A program made the position numbers and the translations under genes. Shown piece by piece: positions 1,989 to 61,820 of a stretch of 61,820 nucleotides of DNA. The notes below the pieces were generated by a model. The model worked only from the letters and a program-made list of their open reading frames with translations. It made no database searches and was not told the origin of the DNA. The stretch's first letter is position 1, and the number at the start of each line of letters is the position of its first letter. The DNA comes from Acetofilamentum sp. (GTDB lineage: Bacteria; Bacteroidota; Bacteroidia; Bacteroidales; JAADGE01), in assembly GCA_020720665.1 (NCBI GenBank), contig DYOF01000003.1, positions 1-61,820 on the forward strand, in the 5' to 3' direction.

Positions 1989-3503
1989 TTAATTAAAAAG
2001 CCACCCGAAATTTTCTTTACTGACAACAAACATTTGCATATAATCATATTTGTCAGATAATTTATTAAACTGACTGTCGGAATCTGCGACATCTAAAAAA
2101 ATTATTTTCCCGTCAATTTCGGCTTTTGCGATAACTGATGTAAATTGGTTTATTAATGCCGCATTTCTGTCAACAGGTTCACGCGATTTAATATTCACCA
2201 AAACCGGTGTAACATTTATTTCGGCTCTTTTAAGCAGGTACATAAAAACAAAGTTCATTTCTGCACTACTGCCGGTACCTTTTTCAAAATAAAGACCTAA
2301 ATTATTATATTTAACAGAATGATCGATTTTTCCGTAGATTTTTTTCAGCAAACCATCCGAGACATCTGAAAATAATGAATATTCATTATTCCACTTCATG
2401 TTTGACCTTACGGTATTATAAATTGCTTCGGCTTTTTCTGTTTCATTCATTTCGGGGTTTATATTTGCTTGAAGCAAGGAGTCGCAATTCCAATATTTTA
2501 TGAGAGCTAAACCAAATTTCTCATCATTGAGCAAACGCGTATTCAGTTCTGACCAATCGGGTAAATAATAGATGATGTAGGCGGCAGGATAATTCAACAT
2601 TTTTCGTTGTCCCGGTGTTCGTTGCTCATAATCGGGATAGCTTGTTATCATTAATGAACGGCTTAATCTTTCCCACGCATAATTTTCGGGGATTGTTTTT
2701 AGTCGCTTTAAATATATATTAATTTTTTCAGCTTCGTTTTTATTTTTCATTACAGGCATATTTTGATTAACAAAACGATATTCGGTACCCGATAAATCGA
2801 TTACAGACGTGTAAATTCTTTGATAAATTCTGAATTGATATGCCAGAGAACGATTGTAAAACGATGAATCACGAACACTTAATACATCCGTATTTTTTAG
2901 GGAGAAAATATATTTAAAATTATTCGGAACGGCTGCTCTAAATTCACTGTAAATTACCGGTAATTCATTTTCAAAATACCATGGTTCCGGTTTAAGCATT
3001 GTTAAGGTCGGTGTAAGCAAAATAAATTCCAAAATTGAACCGACTTTGGCATCAGGAAATTCAAATTCGGCAATTTTGGTACAATTAAGGGTATCTCTGA
3101 TTTTAACTGCTTTGTTTTTCAGTTTTATAATTGTTTCTTCACCGGATTTATCGAAATTATGAGTAACGGCTTTCAAGCTGTATGACAATTCGCCAAAAAA
3201 TTGTTCGCAATGCATATCATGAAAAGAAAATGTTTGTTTGGCATATTTTAAACCTTCTTCGTTTAAAATTTTTATTCTGACATGTCTTTTCCTGATTAAA
3301 AACAGATGTTCGCCGTTAGGGTTTGTATCAAAATACATTTGACCGTAATCGTATAAAATAACCGCCGGAAAATCAGGATTTTCATTATATGATTTCAGCT
3401 CAATTTCTTCTTTTGAAAGTTCTTTCCATTTAATAGGGTCCTTTTGAGCGAATACAGAAATACTTATTGTAAACAAAACCCAAAAGATTATTTGTGTTTT
3501 CAT
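1989..3503 (-). CDS. exported DUF3857 / transglutaminase-like domain protein
   Basis: Signal peptide; AVILYDYG, RIKILNEEG, FPDAKVGSILE, PWYF, LPVIYSEF motifs; transglutaminase-like core lacking the catalytic Cys (GSSAEMN). Confidence 0.75.
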   Translation of the reverse strand: MKTQIIFWVLFTISISVFAQKDPIKWKELSKEEIELKSYNENPDFPAVILYDYGQMYFDTNPNGEHLFLIRKRHVRIKILNEEGLKYAKQTFSFHDMHCEQFFGELSYSLKAVTHNFDKSGEETIIKLKNKAVKIRDTLNCTKIAEFEFPDAKVGSILEFILLTPTLTMLKPEPWYFENELPVIYSEFRAAVPNNFKYIFSLKNTDVLSVRDSSFYNRSLAYQFRIYQRIYTSVIDLSGTEYRFVNQNMPVMKNKNEAEKINIYLKRLKTIPENYAWERLSRSLMITSYPDYEQRTPGQRKMLNYPAAYIIYYLPDWSELNTRLLNDEKFGLALIKYWNCDSLLQANINPEMNETEKAEAIYNTVRSNMKWNNEYSLFSDVSDGLLKKIYGKIDHSVKYNNLGLYFEKGTGSSAEMNFVFMYLLKRAEINVTPVLVNIKSREPVDRNAALINQFTSVIAKAEIDGKIIFLDVADSDSQFNKLSDKYDYMQMFVVSKENFGWLFN

Positions 3504-12843: not shown

Positions 12844-15585
12844 ATGCTGAACAATAAAACATTGCTGATTGTTTCCGGTATAGCCGTTGCTGCCGTTATT
12901 CTTGTTTTTTTATTTGTCGGCAAAGAAAGCAAAACACTTTCTCCGGTTATTAAAGCCATTCCGAACAAAGCGGCATTTATAATTGAAACTTCTGATTTTA
13001 ACTACTTAACAAATAAAATATCAAAAAACGAAAATTTAAAATCTTTACTTTCTCAATCTAAATTCTCAAAACACTTTTATAATCAACTGATTTTTATTGA
13101 CTCTGTTATAAGACATGAAAAAACATTCAGCGATTTTATCAACCAAAAAACCGTTATCTTATCAGCCCACTATTTAGGACAAAATAATTTAGATTACTTA
13201 TTTGCTACCGGATTTTCCGGAAAAAAATCAGATATTGATAAAATTAATCAATCTATAAAAAAACTAAACGACAATTCTCCTGTTAATACCATTAATTTTG
13301 CCGGTGCCGAAATATTTAAAATATCATTAAAGGGTTCAAAATCTGATATTTATTATTCATTTTTTGAAGATTACTTTTTATTAAGTTATTCAGAAATCAT
13401 CCTGCAAAAATCAATTAAAAATATTAACAGCGGTGCAAGCCTTTTTGATTCTCCTAATTTTAAATCTCTTTATCAAAAAACAGGCAAAAAAAATGACGCA
13501 ACACTATATATTTGTTATGAAAACCTTTTTTCATATATAGAAATTAAAGGACAACAATTGTATCGAAGCAGATTTAATTTATTAAGAAATTTTGCTGATT
13601 GGACGGCACTGGATATCCAAATTAAAAAGAAAGATATCAAGTTTACAGGACACACAACATTAAAATCAGAAATGCAATATTTAAAACTTTTTGAAAATGT
13701 TACTCCCGAAAACGCCGAAATTTTAAAAATATTACCTGAAAAAACTTCATCCTTTGTTTCATTAAATATCGGAACAGGCTCACAATTCAAATACAAGTAT
13801 GAAGACTACTGCGGACTTATCAGAACCTTAAACGATTATCAAGTTAAATTGGCTGAATTTAATAAAGAATACGACTTCACTGACGATAAAAACACGCTTT
13901 ATGAATTAATCGGCGGAGAAGTTTCTCTCTTTACCGAAGACGTTTTTAAAAACGGAAAAGAACAAAATACTTTTTTTGCAGTCAGCTACAAAGAAAAATC
14001 AGATATCGAAAAGTTTTTCAACATAATAATTAAAACACATTCCGCAAAAAAAAACGAACCCGAAGATACATACAAAAGCAATTATATTTCTAATGATAAC
14101 GAATATATAATTTATAAAAATCCCGAAATTAAATTACCGGAAATTTTTTTCGGTGAACTGTTTAAAAATATTGATGCAAATTATATTTGCCTGATTAAAA
14201 ACTTTATTGTTTTCGGAGAAAATAAAACCGCTTTGTACGGATTAATAGACTCTTTTGAGAAGGACAAAACTCTGAAACGAAAATCTCAAAACTATTCTTT
14301 TCTTAAAAGTTTAGCCGATCAGTCTAATATTTTGTTTTTTATTGATCCGATTCATGCCGAAAGTATTTTAAAAAGCCTGTTTATAAACTTCTCCTTTGAT
14401 AAAACCCAAGGAATTAACAGAATACAAGGACCTGCCGTACAATTTATTGCTGACAATTACCCGATTTATACAACAATTAAGATTTCATTTAATTCTGACC
14501 GTCAACAATCAGCAGAATCTGTTTGGGAGCTAAGGTTAGACACCGTAATATCCGAAAAACCCTATATTGTTTTAAACCATGAAACACTTGAAAAAGAAAT
14601 TGTGATTCAAGATCTTGCAAACAAAATATATTTAATAGATAAAAACGGTAATATTCTTTGGAACAGACAATTAGACGGGATAATTATCTCAAATATCTAT
14701 CAAATTGATTACTATGAAAACAGTAAACTCCAATTAATCTTTAATACAAAAAATAAAATTTATTGTATTGACAGAAAAGGAAATTGGTTAGAAGGCTACC
14801 CTATCGAATTAAAATCGCCGGCAACAAACGGATTATCAGTGTTTGATTATGACAATGATAAAAATTACAGAATATTTATTGCCGGAGAAAATAAAAAAAT
14901 TTATCTCTATAACAAAGACGGAAAAATTGTTGACGGGTGGGTTTTTGAACACACGCAAAGTGAAGTAACAAATGAAATAAACCATTATAAAAATGCTGAC
15001 AATGACTATATTACATTCAGAGACAAAACAAATATTTACATTTTAAATCGCAGAGGAGAAACCCGAATAGTTCCCGATATAAATATTCCGCTTTCCGACA
15101 ATAACAAAATATATTTTCATGTAAATAATGAAAAAGCATTTTTTACAACAACAAGTCCTGCCGGAACCATTTATTTAATTTCAGAAACCGGAAAGACTGA
15201 AAATATTAACATTAAAAAAGTATCTGATAATCATCACTTTTTACAAACCGATGTAACTAATGATAATTTCCCTGATTTTATCTTTACCGATAAAAATTCG
15301 ACAACTGTTTATGACGGTAAAACACGAAAACTATTTTTCTCATATGAATTTGATGATACAATTGAAAATGAATTATTTGAATATGTTTTTTCTGACAACG
15401 ATATTCGTTTAGGTGCAACTTCTGCCGATAAAATTTATTTGATAACAAATAACGGAAAAATTTCTGAGGGTTTTCCGCTTAACGGAACCGGTCGTTTTAG
15501 TATTACAAAATTTACCGAATCGGAAGAATTCTCATTAATCGTAGGAAATAAAGATAATTATTTATACAAATACCAAATTAAATAA
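12844..15585 (+). CDS. large membrane-anchored hypothetical protein (DUF3352-like N-region, C-terminal beta-propeller-like repeats)
   Basis: N-terminal TM anchor; repeated IYxIDxxGxxLxG[YWF]P-type blades near the C-terminus. Confidence 0.55.
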   Translation: MLNNKTLLIVSGIAVAAVILVFLFVGKESKTLSPVIKAIPNKAAFIIETSDFNYLTNKISKNENLKSLLSQSKFSKHFYNQLIFIDSVIRHEKTFSDFINQKTVILSAHYLGQNNLDYLFATGFSGKKSDIDKINQSIKKLNDNSPVNTINFAGAEIFKISLKGSKSDIYYSFFEDYFLLSYSEIILQKSIKNINSGASLFDSPNFKSLYQKTGKKNDATLYICYENLFSYIEIKGQQLYRSRFNLLRNFADWTALDIQIKKKDIKFTGHTTLKSEMQYLKLFENVTPENAEILKILPEKTSSFVSLNIGTGSQFKYKYEDYCGLIRTLNDYQVKLAEFNKEYDFTDDKNTLYELIGGEVSLFTEDVFKNGKEQNTFFAVSYKEKSDIEKFFNIIIKTHSAKKNEPEDTYKSNYISNDNEYIIYKNPEIKLPEIFFGELFKNIDANYICLIKNFIVFGENKTALYGLIDSFEKDKTLKRKSQNYSFLKSLADQSNILFFIDPIHAESILKSLFINFSFDKTQGINRIQGPAVQFIADNYPIYTTIKISFNSDRQQSAESVWELRLDTVISEKPYIVLNHETLEKEIVIQDLANKIYLIDKNGNILWNRQLDGIIISNIYQIDYYENSKLQLIFNTKNKIYCIDRKGNWLEGYPIELKSPATNGLSVFDYDNDKNYRIFIAGENKKIYLYNKDGKIVDGWVFEHTQSEVTNEINHYKNADNDYITFRDKTNIYILNRRGETRIVPDINIPLSDNNKIYFHVNNEKAFFTTTSPAGTIYLISETGKTENINIKKVSDNHHFLQTDVTNDNFPDFIFTDKNSTTVYDGKTRKLFFSYEFDDTIENELFEYVFSDNDIRLGATSADKIYLITNNGKISEGFPLNGTGRFSITKFTESEEFSLIVGNKDNYLYKYQIK

Positions 15586-21989: not shown

Positions 21990-22712
21990 TTAAAACAGTT
22001 GAGTTAATACATTTAATGTTTTTAATTGTCCCGGTTTTCCCAAATGATAATTGAAATATTCTATTATACATTTCAACAGTTGTTTGCGTACAGAATTATT
22101 TATCTTGAGAAGATGCGATTCTTGAATTGTTAAATCGAACATTTGAGATACCGAAAAACTCAATTCTGAATTTACAAACAGATTGTGATTTGGAATTCCG
22201 CTGATAAATTTGCCGTTTTTAATATCAAACGTTTGCTTAATTTCAGAATAATTATTCTCAGGCATAATTCCCATTATTTTGCAAAAGTTAAATAAAAATA
22301 ACAAGTGAAAGTTTTGATAATTGTTTTGAAGTTTATCTAAACAGATTATTGAATTAACTATAAAATCAAACAATGCCGGTTCCGGTTCGTCTTCTTTTAA
22401 TGTTTTCATTAAAAATTCCGACAAAAACAGAGAAATCGAATTTTTTGTTATATCAAACGGAATAGTCAGCAAAGGGTAAGCATTACTTATTTCTTTTATT
22501 TTTTGCAATTCAACTCTTTCATTATTATATACTTGCATATCTAAAATAAAAAACGGCTGTAACATAACAAAAGACGGCACGCTTTTTTTCGACTTTGATA
22601 CATAAATTAAATATGATTTTAAGCCGAAATTTTCAGTGTAAATCTTTGCTATCAGTTTTGTATCCGAATACTTGAATCGATGAAGAACAATTCCTTTCGT
22701 TGAAGAAATCAT
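21990..22712 (-). CDS. recO: DNA repair protein RecO
   Basis: TKGIVLHRFKYSDTKLIAKIYTENFG OB fold, LQPF, EPEPALFDF, FDIKNGKF, LKTLNVL; ATG 22712 preferred. Confidence 0.9.
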   Translation of the reverse strand: MISSTKGIVLHRFKYSDTKLIAKIYTENFGLKSYLIYVSKSKKSVPSFVMLQPFFILDMQVYNNERVELQKIKEISNAYPLLTIPFDITKNSISLFLSEFLMKTLKEDEPEPALFDFIVNSIICLDKLQNNYQNFHLLFLFNFCKIMGIMPENNYSEIKQTFDIKNGKFISGIPNHNLFVNSELSFSVSQMFDLTIQESHLLKINNSVRKQLLKCIIEYFNYHLGKPGQLKTLNVLTQLF

Positions 22713-22907
22713 AGATTTATTATTTTTGTAAAAATACAAATATTGCCAAATTATATATCTCTAATAAAAAAATAATGACCGCTTTTTTTGTGAATTTAAG
22801 ATGTTCGTTGTATCTTAGTATTAACGATTCATTTGTTAGAAATTCGAATCAATATTTTATAAAATTTTACATTAAAAAAATTATTATGAAACACCCATGA
22901 AAGACAA

Positions 22908-22990
22908 TTTTTCCCACAAAGGAACATAACTAACGGAATACCTCAATTACATTTAACAGAAAGTGATATGTTCCTATGTGCAGGAAAAAA
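22908..22990 (+). other. long imperfect hairpin in the leader of the DUF4139 gene
   Basis: TTTTTCC-CACAAAGGAACATA-ACT pairs with AGT-GA-TATGTTCCTATGTG-CA-GGAAAAA; the 14-bp core has one mismatch. Confidence 0.6.
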
Positions 22991-23056
22991 CACGCATTAT
23001 AAATAAGTATAAGCATTCAATTTGCAAATTATTAATTAATTAAAATTTTTAGACAC
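22974..23056 (+). repeat. duplicated 5' leader, copy A
   Basis: 72/84 identical by hand to the reverse complement of 61737-61820; both end at an ATG. Confidence 0.85.
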
Positions 23057-24718
23057 ATGAAAATGAAAATTATATTATTTGGAGCTTTTTTATTGATATT
23101 CGGGCAAGTTCAATCCCAAAATATTCCTGAAAAAAAAGTAAGCACTGAAATAAGTTCTGCTACCATTTATTTATCAGGAGCAGAAATTATTCGTAATAAA
23201 AGCATTACACTGGCAAAAGGAAAAACACAAATTATTTTTGAGGGATTATCTCCAAAAATTAATCCGAAAAGCATTCGAATTACGACTGATAAAACTATCG
23301 ATTTATTAGGTATTTCCAACAAAATTAATTATTTAGCCAAGGAAGAACACGGTCCTGAAATAAAACGTTTAAACGACTCATTAGAAATTGTAAAAAATGA
23401 ACTCCAAACTATAGCCGATAAAACAGATGCTTTTTCAACAGAAAAGCAATTATTGTTAAAAAACATATCTCTCGGCGGAACAAACAACGGTGTAAATATT
23501 ACCGAACTAAAGCAAGCATCCGATTTTTACAGACTAAAAATTACCGAAATTAATTCCAAAATATCTCAATTAAATCAACAAAAGGAAAAATTAAATTTAG
23601 GCTATCAGCGTATCGTATCCCAATTAAATGAAATGAATTCAAATGCAGGATATACTCGCTCGGAAATAAGTATTTTAGTATCATGCGATGCTCCGGTTAC
23701 CGGTAATTTTGAATTGAAATATTTAGTTGACGGAGCCGGTTGGTCGCCTGCATATGATATTAAAGCATTTGATATAAACGAACCTGTAACCCTTGAATAC
23801 CGAGCGAAAGTTTATAATAATACAGATATTAATTGGAAAGATTTAAAAATTAAATTATCAACTGCCGATCCGAATTTAAGTGTAACAAAACCAATTCTTA
23901 ATCCATGGTATTTGCGTTATCAAACTTATAACTACAATTCAAATATGTTTAAAGGTAAAGAAGGTTATATCCAAAACCAAATTTCTGATGAACGAAACTT
24001 ATCGGTTCAACAAGAAGCTTTTTCAGAATTAAATGAAGTCATTGTAACTTCAGGAGATTTTTCAGAAACTACTGTTCCCGAACTGAGTGCTGAATTTGAA
24101 ATTACAAAATCTTATTCTATACCTTCTGATGACAAACCCTATTTAGTGGATATAAGCGAGCATCAACTGCCTGCAAACTATCAGCATTTTGCTGTTACAA
24201 AATTAGACCGAGATGTATTTTTAATTGCACAAATTACCGGTTGGCAAGATTTAAACCTAATTGAAGGTCCTGCAAATGTTTATTATTCCGGAACATACTT
24301 GGGGCAGTCGTTTATAAACACCAGAAATGTAAAAGACACGCTCGACTTATCACTCGGAAGAGACAGCAAAGTAATCGTAACCAGAACTAAGCTCAAAGAA
24401 TTCAGCAGCTCACAATTTGTAGGAACAAAAAAGAAAGAAACTATGACCTATCAATTAACGGCTAAAAATAACCGAAAAAGCGATGTTACAATTGAAATCT
24501 TAGACCAACTTCCGATTTCACAAACTGACGAAATAGAAGTTAAAGCAATTGAACTATCCGGTGCAGAACAAAATCTGTCAACAGGCGAATTAAAATGGAA
24601 ATACACCCTGAAACCCGGCGAATCAAAAACCATTAAACTTTCATATTATATTAAATATCCGGAAAACAAACAACTTGAAATTGAACAAAGAAAATCAAAA
24701 CAAGTAAGATATTTCTGA
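23057..24718 (+). CDS. exported DUF4140/DUF4139 (mucoidy inhibitor MuiA-like) protein
   Basis: Signal peptide; ATIYLSGAEI, coiled coil, AGWSPAYD, NNTDINW, LSTADP, LDQLPIS, GELKW. Confidence 0.85.
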   Translation: MKMKIILFGAFLLIFGQVQSQNIPEKKVSTEISSATIYLSGAEIIRNKSITLAKGKTQIIFEGLSPKINPKSIRITTDKTIDLLGISNKINYLAKEEHGPEIKRLNDSLEIVKNELQTIADKTDAFSTEKQLLLKNISLGGTNNGVNITELKQASDFYRLKITEINSKISQLNQQKEKLNLGYQRIVSQLNEMNSNAGYTRSEISILVSCDAPVTGNFELKYLVDGAGWSPAYDIKAFDINEPVTLEYRAKVYNNTDINWKDLKIKLSTADPNLSVTKPILNPWYLRYQTYNYNSNMFKGKEGYIQNQISDERNLSVQQEAFSELNEVIVTSGDFSETTVPELSAEFEITKSYSIPSDDKPYLVDISEHQLPANYQHFAVTKLDRDVFLIAQITGWQDLNLIEGPANVYYSGTYLGQSFINTRNVKDTLDLSLGRDSKVIVTRTKLKEFSSSQFVGTKKKETMTYQLTAKNNRKSDVTIEILDQLPISQTDEIEVKAIELSGAEQNLSTGELKWKYTLKPGESKTIKLSYYIKYPENKQLEIEQRKSKQVRYF

Positions 24719-57128: not shown

Positions 57129-57165
57129 AAAAAAACCCCTTTAAAATTAAAGGGGCTTTTTTTTT
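57129..57165 (-). terminator. intrinsic terminator after the second SpoIIE sensor
   Basis: CCCCTTTAA/TTAAAGGGG inverted repeat flanked by A and T runs. Confidence 0.75.
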
Positions 57166-60100
57166 ATATCTCTATTCCGATAATCAGAATATCATCTACT
57201 TGTTTATAAACTCTTCCTGTATTATCTTTAAAGCTCATCCAATACTGCAAAAATTCTTCTAATGCCTTTTTCTGTTCATCCACCGATTTTTTATTATTTT
57301 CTAATAAAATGTTTTGCAAGTTTTCGGATCTAATTTTTTGATTATTTTTTCCTCCGAATTGATCAACAAAGCCATCGGAGAAAATATATAAGAAATCGCC
57401 TTTTTGAATTTCTATGATATTGTTCGAAAACGATTCTTTTTCTCTGAGGTAAATTCCTATCGGCATTCTGTCCGGTTTTATGCGTTCTGCATTTCCGTTA
57501 CGAATTATTAACAGAGGGTTATATGCGCCGGCAAATTGCAACTGCATATTTTCCATGTCAATAATACATAATGCAATATCCATCCCGTCTTTTGCTTCAT
57601 TATCTTTTCCTGTTTGTCGCAGCGAGCGTTTTACGTTTTCGCGAAGTCGATTTAAAATAATATTTGCTTCTAATATTTCTTCTTTATTTACAATTTCATT
57701 TAAAAATGACATACCCAACATACTCATAAAAGCACCCGGAACACCGTGGCCGGTACAATCTGCCGCAACGATTACTGTTTTATTTCCTTTTTGTGTTGCC
57801 CAATAAAAATCTCCGCTCACAATATCACGAGGTTTGAACAGCACAAAATGTTCTCCTAATATTTCTTGTAAATAATCATCCGGAGGTAATACAGCTTCTT
57901 GAATTCTGCTTGCATAATGGATACTGTCCATAATGTGTTTTTGCTGCTTTTCAATTTTATCTTTTGCTTTTTCTACTTTTTCTTTTTGTTCTTGGATTTC
58001 ATCTCGTTGTGCCGTTATTTCTTCATTTTGCATTCTTATTTCTGCGGTACGTTCTTTCACAATTTGCTCTAATTTTTCATTTTCTCGTTTTAGCTTTTTT
58101 GTATATAAGCGAATAATTATAATAATTGCAAAAACAGCCATTATTAAAAAGGAAATATAAGCCCAAACAGTTCTGTACCAAGGCGGTAGCACCTCAAAAC
58201 TAAACCGTGCAATCGGGCTTTCTATATTATAAATATTTTTGGCTTTTACTTCAAATATGTATGTTCCTTCGTGCAAATTAGTGTATCTGGTGTCATTTTT
58301 TTTGTCCCATTTTGACCATGCTTCTGTTTCTCCTGATAATCTATAGCTATAAACAGTTTCTTCACTCTTTTCAAAAAAAGGTGATGCCCATTCAAATGTA
58401 ATTGTATTGTATTTATAGCTTAAAATCGGTTGATTTTCAGGCTTTTGCTCAAGAACAACGGATGGGATATTTCCGTTATATTCAATATAATTTCCGTTAA
58501 ATAAAACCGAATCGAAGGCTGTTGAAACTTTAGTAATTATAGTATTGAACGATTCGGAATAGTTTTTTTGTATGGTTCTGTTGTATTTAAAAAGTCCTTT
58601 TTCGTTACCTACCCATGTATAGTCTCCGTCAAAATATATTAAGTAGCTTGGTTTCTGAGGTAATATTTTTGAAAAAACAGAATCTTTTCCGACAGATTTA
58701 TTCAAATTGAATTTAATTAAATTAAAGTTTAAGTTATCTGCATTTGTTTCGTAAACAGACATCCAATATTCTTTATTAAAGTTTTTAAAATTAAAAATGC
58801 CGAGATGTTCTTCTGTTAATTGGTTTCCAAAATCTCTTAGGGGTTCGACTTCAAAGGTTTTTTCGTTAATTGTATATAAACCGGATTCACTCACAATTAA
58901 AACCTTTCCGTTGTATTCTGTTAAATTATAGTCTCTGCCTTGCATAGGCAGACCTTTGGTCGAATCTATATCAATTTTTGATTTATCGTAAAAATCATCA
59001 ATAATTGTAATCCCGACTGTTGAGCCCAAAGCCAAAAAATTTTTATTTTCATAAATACTTCTGACTTCTTGATGAATACTGTCATGTTTTCCTTCGTTTA
59101 TCCAACTTCCTTTATCGTATCTGACTAAGTTTAATCCTGTAGTACCGACATAAAGAAGCGATGAGTCTTTGGCCGATTGATAGAGCTTAAATGCTTGTTG
59201 CATTTCGACAACTAGCTTTATTTCTTTTTCTGAAACTTCATAAATTCCTTCTGCAGTACCCAATAAAAGTTTTTTTTCGTTTGAACCGGGCACATCAAAT
59301 TCCATTAAATCCCATGCTTGAAGCGCATCGCCTATTTTTACGAATGATTTATTTAAATCGTTTTCTGCTAAATAATAAACGGCACTTCCTGAAATCAAAT
59401 AAAGTAAATTATTAAATCGTAAAGCATCAAAATACGGAGGACCTTCCAGTCCGGTATATTCATTCCATGTAGTAAAGGGTCCGGTAAAGTCGGCACGGTA
59501 AATTCCGTCATCGTCATTTGAAAACCATAAAGCTCCTCCGTCTTTATCTGAGTTACTGAATATTGAATAAATATAATGCTGAGGTAATCCGGTTTTCTCT
59601 GTCAAGTGCTTTATTATTTTTCCGGATTTATTTAGAATGATAATACCGTTGTTAAATGTGCCTAAAGCAATTGTTTCGTCATTCAGCATGTCGGCTGTAT
59701 AGGGAGAGCTTTCAGATATCAGCAGGTCATTTTCGGTAGTAAATTTTGATATCGCATCGCTTTTCTTTTGGGTATCATAAATGAATAAACCCATGCTTCT
59801 TGTAATTATTAAAATTTTAGTCCCATCATAAGGTAACATACCGTATATTCTCTCAAAAGCAAACTGTTCTCCGCCCGGTATTAAAATTGCTTTATCGTCT
59901 TTTACGACCGATAAACCTTTTTCCCATTCTCTGATATAAAACTGATTGTTAACAGAAAACGACAAGTGAAATGTTGATTTTTCCGGTTTTATAAAATTTA
60001 TTTTATTCAGTAAATTATTGGATTTATCAATCTTTAGAGGAAGTTCAGTGTAAAATACTTTTTCGAAACTTTGAAAATAAATTCGATTACCTGCAATTAG

Positions 60101-60508
60101 TGTTTTCCAAACAGAAGAAAAATCAAATTCCGGATTTTTTTTATAGTAATTTAAAAATAATGAGTAGAAATTTAATTTTCCTAAGGAATCGGGTAATAAA
60201 ACACCGAAATCGCTTTCTGCTCCGTAAAATACTAATCCGCTTTTATCAACGGCTAAGGATTTAATTATTGTGCTGTTCGGGTTGTTATAGGTTTTCCAGT
60301 TTTTCCCGTCAAATGTTTTTACCCCTAAATTACACCCAAAATACATAATACCTCTCCGGTCTTGGGTTATTGCCCATACCTGGCCGGATTCTCCGTAATC
60401 TTTATCAGTATATTTAACAAGCAAAGGCAAACCATCCTTATTCACTTGTGCAAGGGTATTGATGTTTACAATAAATAAAACAGAGATGAGCAAAAATATG
60501 TTTTTCAT
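57164..60508 (-). CDS. membrane sensor: beta-propeller + YYY + TM + coiled coil + SpoIIE/PP2C phosphatase
   Basis: Signal peptide, propeller blades, YTNLHEGTYIFEVKAKN, PPWYRT-TM, LEQIVKERTAEI, SGDFYW, ADCTGHGVPGAFMS, DGMD, SDGFVDQFGG, QVDDI. Confidence 0.9.
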   Translation of the reverse strand: MKNIFLLISVLFIVNINTLAQVNKDGLPLLVKYTDKDYGESGQVWAITQDRRGIMYFGCNLGVKTFDGKNWKTYNNPNSTIIKSLAVDKSGLVFYGAESDFGVLLPDSLGKLNFYSLFLNYYKKNPEFDFSSVWKTLIAGNRIYFQSFEKVFYTELPLKIDKSNNLLNKINFIKPEKSTFHLSFSVNNQFYIREWEKGLSVVKDDKAILIPGGEQFAFERIYGMLPYDGTKILIITRSMGLFIYDTQKKSDAISKFTTENDLLISESSPYTADMLNDETIALGTFNNGIIILNKSGKIIKHLTEKTGLPQHYIYSIFSNSDKDGGALWFSNDDDGIYRADFTGPFTTWNEYTGLEGPPYFDALRFNNLLYLISGSAVYYLAENDLNKSFVKIGDALQAWDLMEFDVPGSNEKKLLLGTAEGIYEVSEKEIKLVVEMQQAFKLYQSAKDSSLLYVGTTGLNLVRYDKGSWINEGKHDSIHQEVRSIYENKNFLALGSTVGITIIDDFYDKSKIDIDSTKGLPMQGRDYNLTEYNGKVLIVSESGLYTINEKTFEVEPLRDFGNQLTEEHLGIFNFKNFNKEYWMSVYETNADNLNFNLIKFNLNKSVGKDSVFSKILPQKPSYLIYFDGDYTWVGNEKGLFKYNRTIQKNYSESFNTIITKVSTAFDSVLFNGNYIEYNGNIPSVVLEQKPENQPILSYKYNTITFEWASPFFEKSEETVYSYRLSGETEAWSKWDKKNDTRYTNLHEGTYIFEVKAKNIYNIESPIARFSFEVLPPWYRTVWAYISFLIMAVFAIIIIIRLYTKKLKRENEKLEQIVKERTAEIRMQNEEITAQRDEIQEQKEKVEKAKDKIEKQQKHIMDSIHYASRIQEAVLPPDDYLQEILGEHFVLFKPRDIVSGDFYWATQKGNKTVIVAADCTGHGVPGAFMSMLGMSFLNEIVNKEEILEANIILNRLRENVKRSLRQTGKDNEAKDGMDIALCIIDMENMQLQFAGAYNPLLIIRNGNAERIKPDRMPIGIYLREKESFSNNIIEIQKGDFLYIFSDGFVDQFGGKNNQKIRSENLQNILLENNKKSVDEQKKALEEFLQYWMSFKDNTGRVYKQVDDILIIGIEI

Positions 60509-60686: not shown

Positions 60687-61736
60687 TTAAGGAACAAAAA
60701 TCATTTTATTTCTTACAAATGTGTTTGTAGAAATTAAGATATTGTAATAACCGGTATTATAAAGAAAAGGGACTTTCGTGGTTTTACATCTTCCGGCTTT
60801 TTTATTTAATAATAATTTTCCTGATATATCAAAGCAGTTGATACTTGTAATTTCGTACTGATCCGGGTTTAAAATTGTAATAAAACCGTCATTATAAAAC
60901 ACTTCAATATTTTTCATCTGTAAATCTTGCACAGAGCTAAACGCATTTTGTTCTCCGCCGGTAAAATCGCCGAACTCAGAAACCTGCCCGGAAAACATTA
61001 AATTAGACGCTTTATTTAATATATTCCAAGTTCCTGTCCAAAGTCCGCCGTATATTTCTGACTCTGAGCCGACTATATCGTAGGTGTTGTAATGAAACAC
61101 TAAATCGCTTATAAAATTTGTAATCCCTACTGAATTTATAGTCCAATATCGATTAAGATAATCGGCAGAGGAATTATTGTCGGGATGTTTATTGCTTTCA
61201 ACATCAACGGAATAATAAGCATTCGTGTATGTTCCTGAATTAAAAGCAATTTCAACAGGAGAGTAGGTTTCGGAATTTCCTATCGGGAATAGTATATCAT
61301 CGTTATTTTCAATTTCTTTTATCAACTTACCGCTTCCGTTAATATCAATCATATTATTTGAAGAAAAATTTCCGATAATTGACGAACCGGCACTTAAAAC
61401 CAAATTGTTATCGTTTAACACTAAACTACCGTTTTGTATGTTTAACTCATCTTCAATAAAGAGGTTGGATTCAAGACTTATATTATTTGAATTGTTAACA
61501 AGCATGTTTGAAAAACTGCTGTTTGTTGTTCCGCCTATTGTTTGTTCGTTGTTTCCGCTAAAAACAACAGTTACATTAAATAAATCATCAGATGAATTAT
61601 TAATATAGTCGGCATTATTTATTTTAATATAAGCATTGTTACCGCTTAATTTTGCACCTGAGTTAATTATAATTCCTGTTTGAGAATATCCTTGAAAAAC
61701 AATACCTATAAACAAAAAAATGAATATTTTTTTCAT
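60687..61736 (-). CDS. secreted Asn/Ser-rich protein with a probable T9SS C-terminal domain
   Basis: Signal peptide; FPIG..YSPV, LNRYWTI; CTD-like FDISGKLL...GYYNI...KMIF. Confidence 0.7.
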   Translation of the reverse strand: MKKIFIFLFIGIVFQGYSQTGIIINSGAKLSGNNAYIKINNADYINNSSDDLFNVTVVFSGNNEQTIGGTTNSSFSNMLVNNSNNISLESNLFIEDELNIQNGSLVLNDNNLVLSAGSSIIGNFSSNNMIDINGSGKLIKEIENNDDILFPIGNSETYSPVEIAFNSGTYTNAYYSVDVESNKHPDNNSSADYLNRYWTINSVGITNFISDLVFHYNTYDIVGSESEIYGGLWTGTWNILNKASNLMFSGQVSEFGDFTGGEQNAFSSVQDLQMKNIEVFYNDGFITILNPDQYEITSINCFDISGKLLLNKKAGRCKTTKVPFLYNTGYYNILISTNTFVRNKMIFVP

Positions 61737-61820
61737 CTGTCTAAAAATTTATAATTAATTAATATTCTGCAAATTGAATGCACATACTTATTTATAAAAC
61801 TTGTTTTTCCCCGCAGATAG
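61737..61820 (-). repeat. duplicated 5' leader, copy B (cut by the window edge)
   Basis: Reverse complement is 72/84 identical to 22974-23056 and ends at the ATG of the 60687-61736 gene. Confidence 0.85.

Follow-up and report, generated by a model that had tools for sequence, protein, structure and literature searches.

A dispersed start-codon repeat of Acetofilamentum sp., probably a non-autonomous insertion element targeting ATGAA starts

The window analyzed here is a stretch of 61,820 nucleotides (nt) from Acetofilamentum sp. (contig DYOF01000003.1, here C163). The genome studied (G000) comprises 2,604,337 bases in 237 contigs with a G+C content of 31.6%. At two positions 39 kb apart, similar stretches of non-coding DNA precede genes of the window, and an earlier reading of the letters alone (the original prediction) had described them as the same leader of about 84 nt in front of two unrelated exported proteins. 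The likeness was borne out by blastn, in which positions 22974-23063 and 61730-61820 (the latter as reverse complement) gave an alignment of 91 columns with 86.8% identity (E 5.8e-24). The first gene (23057 to 24718, forward strand) encodes 553 amino acids (aa) in which Pfam recognizes DUF4140 and DUF4139, in agreement with the predicted DUF4139 protein. The second (60687 to 61736, reverse strand) encodes 349 aa; it had been labeled a type IX secretion system cargo, which was not confirmed, as neither Pfam nor NCBIfam gave a match. In line with the predicted signal peptides, both proteins have hydrophobic, signal-peptide-like N-termini according to a crude hydropathy rule. The shared leader is probably the 3′ half of a non-coding, non-autonomous insertion element of about 171 to 175 bp, which targets ATGAA starts and probably acts as a portable promoter and leader. 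Judged by the sequences of its copies, this element is spread through G000 and, in diverged form, through the genus.

The extent of the repeat was determined using a 601-nt query (22600-23200), for which blastn gave 209 matches in G000, most of them starting at 22886 and ending at 23061-23063. The actual unit has a length of about 175 nt (22886/7 to 23061/2), and the predicted 84 nt are its 3′ half. Because contig and window both end at 61820, the second copy (61732 to 61820, reverse strand, nhmmer score 78.8) covers profile positions 88-175 only, and the length of 84 nt is an accident of this cut. The similarity, which had been thought to stop at the start codon, extends through ATGAA(A), 5-6 nt inside the open reading frame (ORF), and the ATGAA of the DUF4139 gene represents the last five bases of the repeat. 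Instead of the two copies noticed at first, an iterated nhmmer profile of 175 positions (E up to 1e-3) identified 204 matches in G000, of which 88 are full length (profile positions 1-3 to 173-175). In total, the matches sum up to 25,561 bases or 0.98% of the genome. No contig end is touched by 123 of them, and 81 of the 474 contig ends lie inside a match, the repeat accounting for about one sixth of the contig breaks in the assembly. Partial matches of about 50 nt are numerous at contig ends, a pattern to be expected when the assembly of short reads is interrupted by a repeat.

The full-length copy of the window (ATGAAACACCC ... TTTTTAGACAC ATGAAA; 22886 to 23062, forward strand, profile positions 1-175, score 151.6) shows the typical architecture of the family, which is non-coding and follows the consensus outline ATGAAACACCC...TTTAGACA(C/G)ATGAA. 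In an alignment of 79 copies together with their flanks, all copies start with ATGAAACACCC and finish with TTTTTAGACA(C/G)ATGAA, whereas the outer flanks are unrelated. The left terminus ATGAAACACCC (22886 to 22896) is conserved in these 79 copies and in the relatives. The mean pairwise identity of 78 distinct full copies was 74.5%, with up to 97% for dispersed, non-adjacent pairs. The family is a mosaic, in which the middle is variable (55% identity at profile positions 48-80) and blocks of higher conservation comprise positions 1-10, 28-44, 81-104 (84%) and 129-175, the latter being the best conserved (86%) and almost free of indels. No terminal inverted repeats were found in an inverted-repeat scan, the termini being ATGAAACACCC and TTTAGACACATGAA. 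Besides A/T palindromes, the only substantial inverted pair is internal (22915-22928 and 22967-22980, 14 nt, 93% complementary, 38 nt apart). Its left arm is CACAAAGGAACATA (22915 to 22928), and its right arm lies in the most conserved block of the family (22967 to 22984, consensus GTGTTCCTATGTGCAG), which is near-invariant in 32 copies from different species. Further downstream, a candidate sigma-A −7 box TCAATTTG (23017 to 23024) is followed by an A/T-rich putative leader (23025 to 23056) that ends with TTTTTAGACAC just before the ATG and belongs to the best-conserved segment 129-175.

Subfamilies, internal-deletion derivatives and head-to-tail tandems with a common ATGAA could be distinguished within the family. 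Internal deletions keep both termini or the 3′ part, decay proceeding from the 5′ side. Twenty head-to-tail pairs overlap by four profile positions, meaning that they have one ATGAA in common. Among the nine complete tandem pairs in G000, three show an identity of 98.9% or more and probably arose by local duplication, and six show an identity of 68 to 90%, which suggests separate insertions beside an existing copy. Such independent insertion would be expected if the element's own ATGAA end is a target.

The original prediction had named many copies at the ATGs of diverse proteins as the pattern of a portable module, and this pattern was found. From the terminal ATG of 117 of the 158 3′-intact copies in G000, an ORF of 115 to 1142 codons opens. 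The remaining copies are followed by the left end of another copy (23), run off the contig (5) or are unanchored (13). Anchoring was therefore observed for 117 of 130 informative copies (90%; terminal ATG opening at least 100 codons), always in one orientation. Several of the 13 unanchored copies have a mutated ATG and low scores and look old. For the 14,064 other ATGAA sites in G000, which served as a control, an ORF of at least 100 codons was observed in 2,054 cases (14.6%; binomial p 6e-82). Crude gene calling, in which ORFs from 120 codons upward were counted (1,900 in total), gave 771 genes starting with ATGAA, compared to 1,744 intergenic ATGAA sites, so that neutral insertion would place about 31% of the copies at starts, whereas 90% were observed there. 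About 6% of these genes (109 of 1,900) begin in a copy. Among 1,745 gene starts outside the recognized copies, just 10 are preceded by the sequence AGACA[CG]ATG, and these look like further remnants; the sequence is therefore no general leader feature of the organism. Occupied starts have an A at +6 in 84% compared to 57% and at +7 in 71% compared to 57%, which favors MKK-type starts.

Comparison of orthologous loci shows the copies, as read from the aligned sequences, to be precise insertions at a pre-existing ATGAA(A) start that rebuild the start and leave the ORF untouched. The clearest case is provided by two closely related congeners, G003 and G004. The empty site in G004 reads ...AAAGAAG ATGAAA AAACATTTT, and the filled site in G003 reads ...AAAGAAA ATGAAA CACTCAC...GACAC ATGAAA AAACATTTT with the same ORF and flanks that are 95-97% identical. 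The two genomes thus differ by a precise insertion of 171 nt with the reading frame intact. Four further sites are occupied in both genomes, the differences between the copies consisting of internal deletions, the gain of a tandem copy or a replacement. As the flanks of these four sites are 91-97% identical, the occupied sites change faster than their surroundings. At an RmlA-type gene, 8 nt separate the stop codon of the upstream gene from ATGAAAGG in G001 and G010 (a longer distance in G008), and in G000 the upstream stop is followed by 5 nt and then by ATGAA, the element and ATGAAAGG. From this comparison it follows that the element was inserted into a tight operon junction. At a gene for a saccharopine dehydrogenase-like protein, a terminator hairpin with an A/T-rich stretch is common to G008 and G000, and in G000 it abuts the left ATGAA of the element. 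The earlier claim of a portable module is thus supported by sites occupied in some genomes and empty at orthologous loci in others.

For the DUF4139 gene of the window, the orthologue in G001 is free of the element, and a block of 33 nt in front of it was kept upstream of the element in G000 (TTTGTGAATTTAAGATGTTCGTTGTATCTTAGT, 22787 to 22819, forward strand). The block is near-identical in both genomes, though the proteins are only 68% identical. It is probably the original promoter, and its conservation indicates that it may be a promoter or operator of the gene. Orthologues of the DUF4139 gene were found in 10 of 14 congeners, none of them with a recognizable full-length element upstream; in G014, an upstream stretch of about 30 nt resembles the 3′ end of the element. 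In the window, the ATGAA at the left terminus occupies the native start position and now opens only a dead-end ORF of 4 codons (MKHP*). In most copies, the displaced old start meets a stop within 4 to 15 codons. The ATGAA(A) stands on both sides of the insertion, and the left side is still ATGAAAC in copies with ATGACT or ATGATT on the right. This could mean that the ATGAA repeat belongs to the element rather than being duplicated from the target.

The upstream context of 74 solo or array-first copies was a co-directional gene in 51 cases and a divergent gene in 16 cases, and in 7 cases no upstream gene was present on the contig. In 15 of the 51 co-directional cases, no more than 30 nt separate the copy from the upstream stop. 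Insertion is independent of a native promoter region.

The family is not restricted to G000. A DNA search of 40 relatives (E up to 0.001) gave matches in 7 of the 14 other genomes belonging to the genus, in 3 of 10 genomes of other genera of the same family (G018 with 85% identity, the other two with partial matches of 33-36 nt) and, outside this family but within the order, in 1 of 16 genomes (a partial match of 35 nt). The loci of G001, G003, G004, G005, G008, G014 and G018 contain full-length copies with the same termini and the same anchoring. Among 34 distinct 3′-intact copies of the relatives, an ORF of at least 100 codons follows in 27 cases and one of only 4 codons in 2 cases; 4 copies are internal to tandems, and the last one runs off the locus. 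Two copies of G018 (C383:90-266 and C518:3954-4106) are 79-94% identical to the window copy, compared to 66-79% for copies of the same genus. They are located on short contigs of an 89%-complete genome in 900 contigs, and bin contamination or transfer is possible.

A 16-mer of the invariant block was found at 79 loci in public species genomes. The records with multiple copies are metagenome-assembled genomes (MAGs) titled uncultured Chlorobi or Chlorobiota bacterium, and the remaining ones are single chance matches. In viral contigs, a 16-mer gave 27 matches, none of which is a real copy according to the profile, and a search of metagenome contigs with 28 nt of the unique left flank gave no match. 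Logan contigs of four runs (X1, X2, X3 and X13; cave, soil and biofilm metagenomes) enter the repeat from both unique flanks and break inside. The summed Logan depth in the repeat bins was about 100 times that of the flanks, which is not a copy number. One Logan joint connects 22881 to 23058, but its shorter side comprises just 22 letters, which is not strong enough for an empty site.

With regard to transcription, the original prediction had compared an invariant block of the repeat to a −7 element. The block GCATTCAATTTGCA is indeed highly conserved, and its TCAATTTG corresponds to 7 of 8 positions of TAnnTTTG. The sigma-A −7 box is described as TAnnTTTG with a TTG 17-23 nt upstream for flavobacteria, and similarly for Chlorobi (PMC9723704; bioRxiv 10.1101/172254). 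By our own reading of the alignments, a −33 TTG is missing at the expected distance of 17-23 nt upstream of TCAATTTG. Alternatively, a TTTG, a spacer of 18-19 nt, TAAATTTT and a further 5-7 nt before the ATG would form a promoter giving a near-leaderless mRNA. Because the 3′ segment is the best conserved one (86%), is poor in indels and places the −7-like TCAATTTG at a fixed distance from the ATG, a role of the 3′ part as portable promoter and leader is plausible.

The genes behind the copies are functionally diverse. Pfam was used to scan 34 downstream proteins, namely the 2 of the window and 32 of the 115 other anchored genes, selected solely by the availability of their loci. Matches to unrelated families were obtained for 27 of them, and 7 remained without a match. 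The families comprise DUF4139/DUF4140, phosphofructokinase (PFK), phosphoglucose isomerase (PGI), a FabG-like short-chain dehydrogenase (SDR), an RmlA-type nucleotidyl transferase, Ham1, 3-hydroxyacyl-CoA dehydrogenase, a Cys/Met PLP enzyme, the peptidases M1, M20 and M28, penicillin amidase, AsmA, TPR, redoxin, an outer-membrane beta-barrel and others. According to the crude hydropathy rule, the N-terminus resembles a signal peptide or membrane segment in 83 of the 117 anchored proteins. Among the genes starting with ATGAA, such N-termini were found in 79 of 109 (72%) with the element and in 329 of 662 (50%) without it (odds ratio 2.7, p 1e-5), compared to 37% of all G000 genes. The bias towards exported proteins is real, moderate and not exclusive, and a part of it may be due to the target preference for A at +6 and +7.

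These observations could be explained by a trans-acting enzyme that would recognize ATGAA(A). The end of the element would recreate the target, which could account for tandem re-insertion by unlike subfamilies. The excess at start codons would result from an extended target choice, from a ratchet or from both. In such a ratchet, a copy serving as the only start and leader of a gene would not be lost by imprecise deletion, and copies elsewhere would decay. As the unanchored copies look old and not young, intrinsic targeting is favored. The conserved 3′ 50-60 nt, with TCAATTTG and the A/T-rich leader at a fixed distance from the ATG, may serve as a portable promoter and leader, and insertion would then rewire the expression of about 6% of the genes instead of killing them. 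The anatomy fits a single-strand (HUH/Y1-type) or core-site recombination better than a DDE transposition, since terminal inverted repeats are missing, a fixed pentanucleotide stands at both junctions and an internal hairpin is present.

Several points weigh against this interpretation. The assembly of G000 was made from short reads and is interrupted in the repeat, so that the interiors of copies may be partly collapsed. The statistics rest on the crude gene calls and the crude hydropathy rule. The sequence fits both a duplication of the ATGAA from the target and an ATGAA carried by the element. The promoter activity of the 3′ part is derived from sequence features, to which the expected upstream TTG does not belong. 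Family searches of G000 gave no match for DDE_Tnp_1, rve, RVT_1, IS110 (PF01548) or the TnpB type (PF07282). The canonical IS200-type TnpA genes of the relatives have ends unrelated to the element, and no homologue of the RAYT (REP-associated tyrosine transposase) of G000 was detected in G003 (43 element matches) and G004 (23), which are rich in copies. In a search for a long autonomous form between the end motifs, the candidates examined were chance matches or were interrupted by runs of N. With no transposase tied to it, the element appears as an orphan in the present data. Little weight can be given to the lack of multi-copy insertion sequence (IS) elements in a MAG built from short reads; G000 is either nearly devoid of IS elements or has lost them in assembly or binning.

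A more elaborate version of the proposed insertion mechanism concerns the invariant internal block. The block GTGTTCCTATGTGCAG is complementary to the right end (CACATG) and to the left end (AACAC) of the element, and we read its reverse complement, CACATAGGAACAC, as almost the same as the junction of right end, ATGAA and left end, CACATGAAACAC. The block GTGTTCCTATGTG could therefore be an internal guide which pairs with both ends and with the ATGAA junction (CACAT-GAA-ACACC), although these complementarities provide a lead only. An enzyme, which could also be one of the host, would use this pairing for seamless insertion and excision at the ATGAA of start codons, making the element a start-codon-homing mobile promoter on which the host would depend for promoter, leader and start of about 6% of its genes, mostly envelope genes. 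We regard this combination as doubtful.

A related explanation is a palindrome-associated transposable element (PATE) of the IS200/IS605 family, moved as single strand by a canonical Y1 TnpA, which would insert 3′ of ATGAA and end with ATGAA. Elements of this family have no inverted termini and no classical target duplication, insert beside a fixed word of 4-5 nt in one orientation and have guide sequences complementary to their ends. The repeat likewise is devoid of terminal inverted repeats, has a strict orientation, an internal hairpin and an invariant internal block complementary to both ends, and a pentanucleotide like the one ending the element abuts its left end; ATGAA precedes ACACCC in nearly all of the 79 aligned copies and likewise in the relatives. 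Since this target word equals the last five bases of the element itself, the target is regenerated, unlike in IS200/IS605. A canonical TnpA (Y1_Tnp, E 1e-23 to 1e-34) was found in all six element-bearing congeners scored. However, G000, the genome richest in copies, contains no canonical TnpA in its assembly, and the protein is also encoded in the element-free genomes G002, G009 and G013 (in total 12 of 14 congeners, with and without the element). The flanks of 8 TnpA loci gave no match to the element profile (E up to 10), and six of these loci read by eye carry different short G+C-rich hairpins. Neither a cognate TnpA nor an autonomous parent was found. This explanation is unlikely. The congeners carry 1 to 11 Y1_Tnp (IS200-type) matches each.

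The similarity could also be a regulon signal, in which selection for common regulation, and not mobility, would have preserved a long cis-regulatory leader, an alternative-sigma promoter or a structured RNA before envelope genes. This idea, put forward in the original prediction as an envelope regulon and a structured cis-regulatory RNA, is in line with the enrichment of signal peptides (79 of 109 compared to 329 of 662), with the strong conservation of the 3′ 50 nt and with the predicted fold of the whole copy (−27.1 kcal/mol as RNA with z −2.94 against shuffles; the other strand, folded as DNA, gave z −2.6). As an origin of the repeat, it is largely refuted by the empty and filled sites with their precise insertion of 171 nt. 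The tandem copies do not fit either, and about 28% of the associated genes encode cytoplasmic housekeeping proteins, the enrichment being only 72% compared to 50%, so that the envelope regulon found no support. The same applies to the structured RNA or riboswitch. A scan of 22700-23200 against Rfam (E up to 10) gave only noise, with a best score of 20.6 bits (threshold 47 bits, E 0.41). For 78 copies of G000, no consensus structure was obtained by RNAalifold on either strand. For 32 copies from different species, a single helix of 6 bp (−1.3 kcal/mol) was predicted between the UAUGUG of the GTGTTCCTATGTGCAG block and the CACAUG of the right end. One pair of this helix covaries in these copies (GC 26, GU 3, CG 2, broken 1). 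In the 78 copies of G000, the same pair (G:C 34, C:G 25, other 19) is equally linked to a neighboring non-pairing column. In a scan of column pairs and mutual information, helices consisted of U/A runs with G:U changes, and linked columns behaved as haplotypes. An independent-pairs test on a FastTree tree of 105 copies gave only 3 supported pairs (p ≥ 0.25). Altogether, a regulon signal as the explanation is very improbable.

Just as improbable is a site-specific cassette, in which a small circle with the core ATGAA(A) would be integrated by an integron- or Xer-like tyrosine or serine recombinase. The identical core on both sides, the single core common to tandem arrays and the precise loss or gain of copies are what such a cassette would produce. 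The tyrosine recombinases of G000, however, consist only of XerD (TIGR02225, 335 bits) and a XerC-like protein (TIGR02224, 320 bits); no integron integrase was found in G000, the integron-integrase models scoring far below their cut-offs, and serine recombinases were not searched. In addition, we read no inverted binding arms around the core. The cassette recombination site proposed in the original prediction thus gained no support.

A REPIN-like population (a REPIN being a hairpin formed by repetitive extragenic palindromic (REP) sequences) maintained by the single RAYT of G000 would be consistent with the imperfect hairpin, whose arms are conserved without supported covariation, the length of about 100-200 nt and the copy number of 100+, which is in the REPIN range. 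The RAYT-like protein contains the only HUH/Y1 domain in G000 (NF047646, E 1.2e-20, 73.8 bits with a cut-off of 80 bits) and is encoded by a single-copy gene. The domain is bracketed by two hairpins GGATTGTACAnCCCTTTGnnAAAGGG which are its own and unrelated to the element. As an abundant REP, this hairpin gave only 4 pattern matches in G000, 2 of which are the RAYT flanks. RAYT homologues were identified in G000 and G008 and as a fragment in G014, and their presence does not track the element, G003 and G004 having dozens of copies and no detected RAYT. REPINs are not known to be orientation-locked to start codons. We therefore consider a REPIN origin highly improbable. The RAYT-like domain is fused in frame to the C-terminus of a complete DapF (TIGR00652, E 2e-62) in a protein of 486 aa (L057:370-1830, corresponding to C114:14936-16396), and the fused frame is also present in G008 (494 aa, 84% identity). 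A copy of the 175-nt element with an internal deletion is located on the dapF start of G000.

Finally, an assembly or binning artefact, in which the repeat was collapsed or mis-joined onto unrelated contigs, can practically be dismissed, since the 81 contig ends in the repeat and the k-mer-overlap-like end matches of about 50 nt are outweighed by 123 matches inside contigs with unique flanks on both sides, by the same architecture in independently assembled relatives and by the Logan contigs of four runs that reach in from the flanks.

The probable insertion element was compared to known mobile DNA. Putative mobile promoters (PMPs) were described as similar non-coding sequences upstream of non-homologous genes and were proposed to rewire transcription (Matus-Garcia, Nijveen, van Passel; PMC3575422). 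They are defined by an identity of at least 80% over at least 50 nt, are scored between −150 and −50, and most families are pairs; their mobilization mechanism is unknown, and anchoring on or rebuilding of a start codon was not reported for them (PMC3575422). With many blastn pairs of 80-94% identity over 90-230 nt and unrelated Pfam families downstream, the repeat falls within this definition. It differs in its more than 100 members, in being anchored on a rebuilt ATG and in the precise insertion documented by empty and filled sites. Correia elements, which are miniature transposable elements with inverted repeats (MITEs) of Neisseria, are named beside mobile promoters (PMC3575422). The repeat resembles MITEs of this type in being short, non-coding, non-autonomous, located next to genes and represented by 204 matches. 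Correia elements are short non-coding sequences with 100+ copies, which can carry outward promoters and have terminal inverted repeats and a TA target duplication. In contrast, the repeat has no terminal inverted repeats, possesses a core of 5-6 nt (ATGAA(A)), a single orientation and an end on the ATG, and no autonomous IS with the same ends was found. IS110 elements of the IS900 type are autonomous, 1.4 kb in size, encode a DEDD transposase and insert between the ribosome binding site and the start codon in one orientation. Orientation-specific targeting of translation starts and the lack of inverted repeats are common to both, but the repeat overlaps and rebuilds the ATG, and G000 contains no IS110-type gene. 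Within the literature searched, no description of a bacterial repeat that inserts at and rebuilds start codons was found. A non-autonomous mobile repeat or mobile promoter is a known concept, and the seamless insertion at start codons is an unusual, well-supported property of the present repeat.

The insertion described here would be a clean way for a mobile promoter to avoid damaging genes, in which the start is rebuilt and the gene survives and gains a new upstream region. About 1 gene in 16 of a 2.6-Mb genome is occupied, including genes in tight operons, and the family persists across the genus. If the 3′ part is a promoter, the repeat would be a natural system for genome-wide transcriptional rewiring and could serve Bacteroidota and Chlorobiota-like bacteria as a compact and portable module for expression. 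A new targeting mechanism would add a class of sequence-specific seamless DNA insertion, and if the guide reading is true, its mode of target choice would be a new one for bacterial transposons. In annotation, the repeat will mislead the assignment of start sites and of "conserved leaders".

Some copies deviate from the common architecture. Runs of N occur in or beside the copies at C100 (about 14730-14830) and C126 (about 3395-3495) of G000, which were excluded from the alignments. An extra insert of about 20-30 nt (…CCCTGAAAGGCTCAGCGAAGCTAAAG…) directly after the left terminus was found at C166:1789-1984 and C20:4564-4759 in G000 and near position 1700 of L071 in G003. As it recurs in another species, it is a nested sub-variant and not a random indel. 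In two copies from G014 and G008 (L073:716-909 and L079:1502-1696), the otherwise invariant block is split between GTGTTC and CTATGTG by a G+C-rich palindromic insert of 20 nt (CCTGYC-TGCCGRCAGGCAGG). In the window itself, the next ORF on the strand of the second gene (57164-60508, reverse strand, 1114 aa) encodes a sensor-type protein with Reg_prop, Y_Y_Y and SpoIIE-phosphatase domains.

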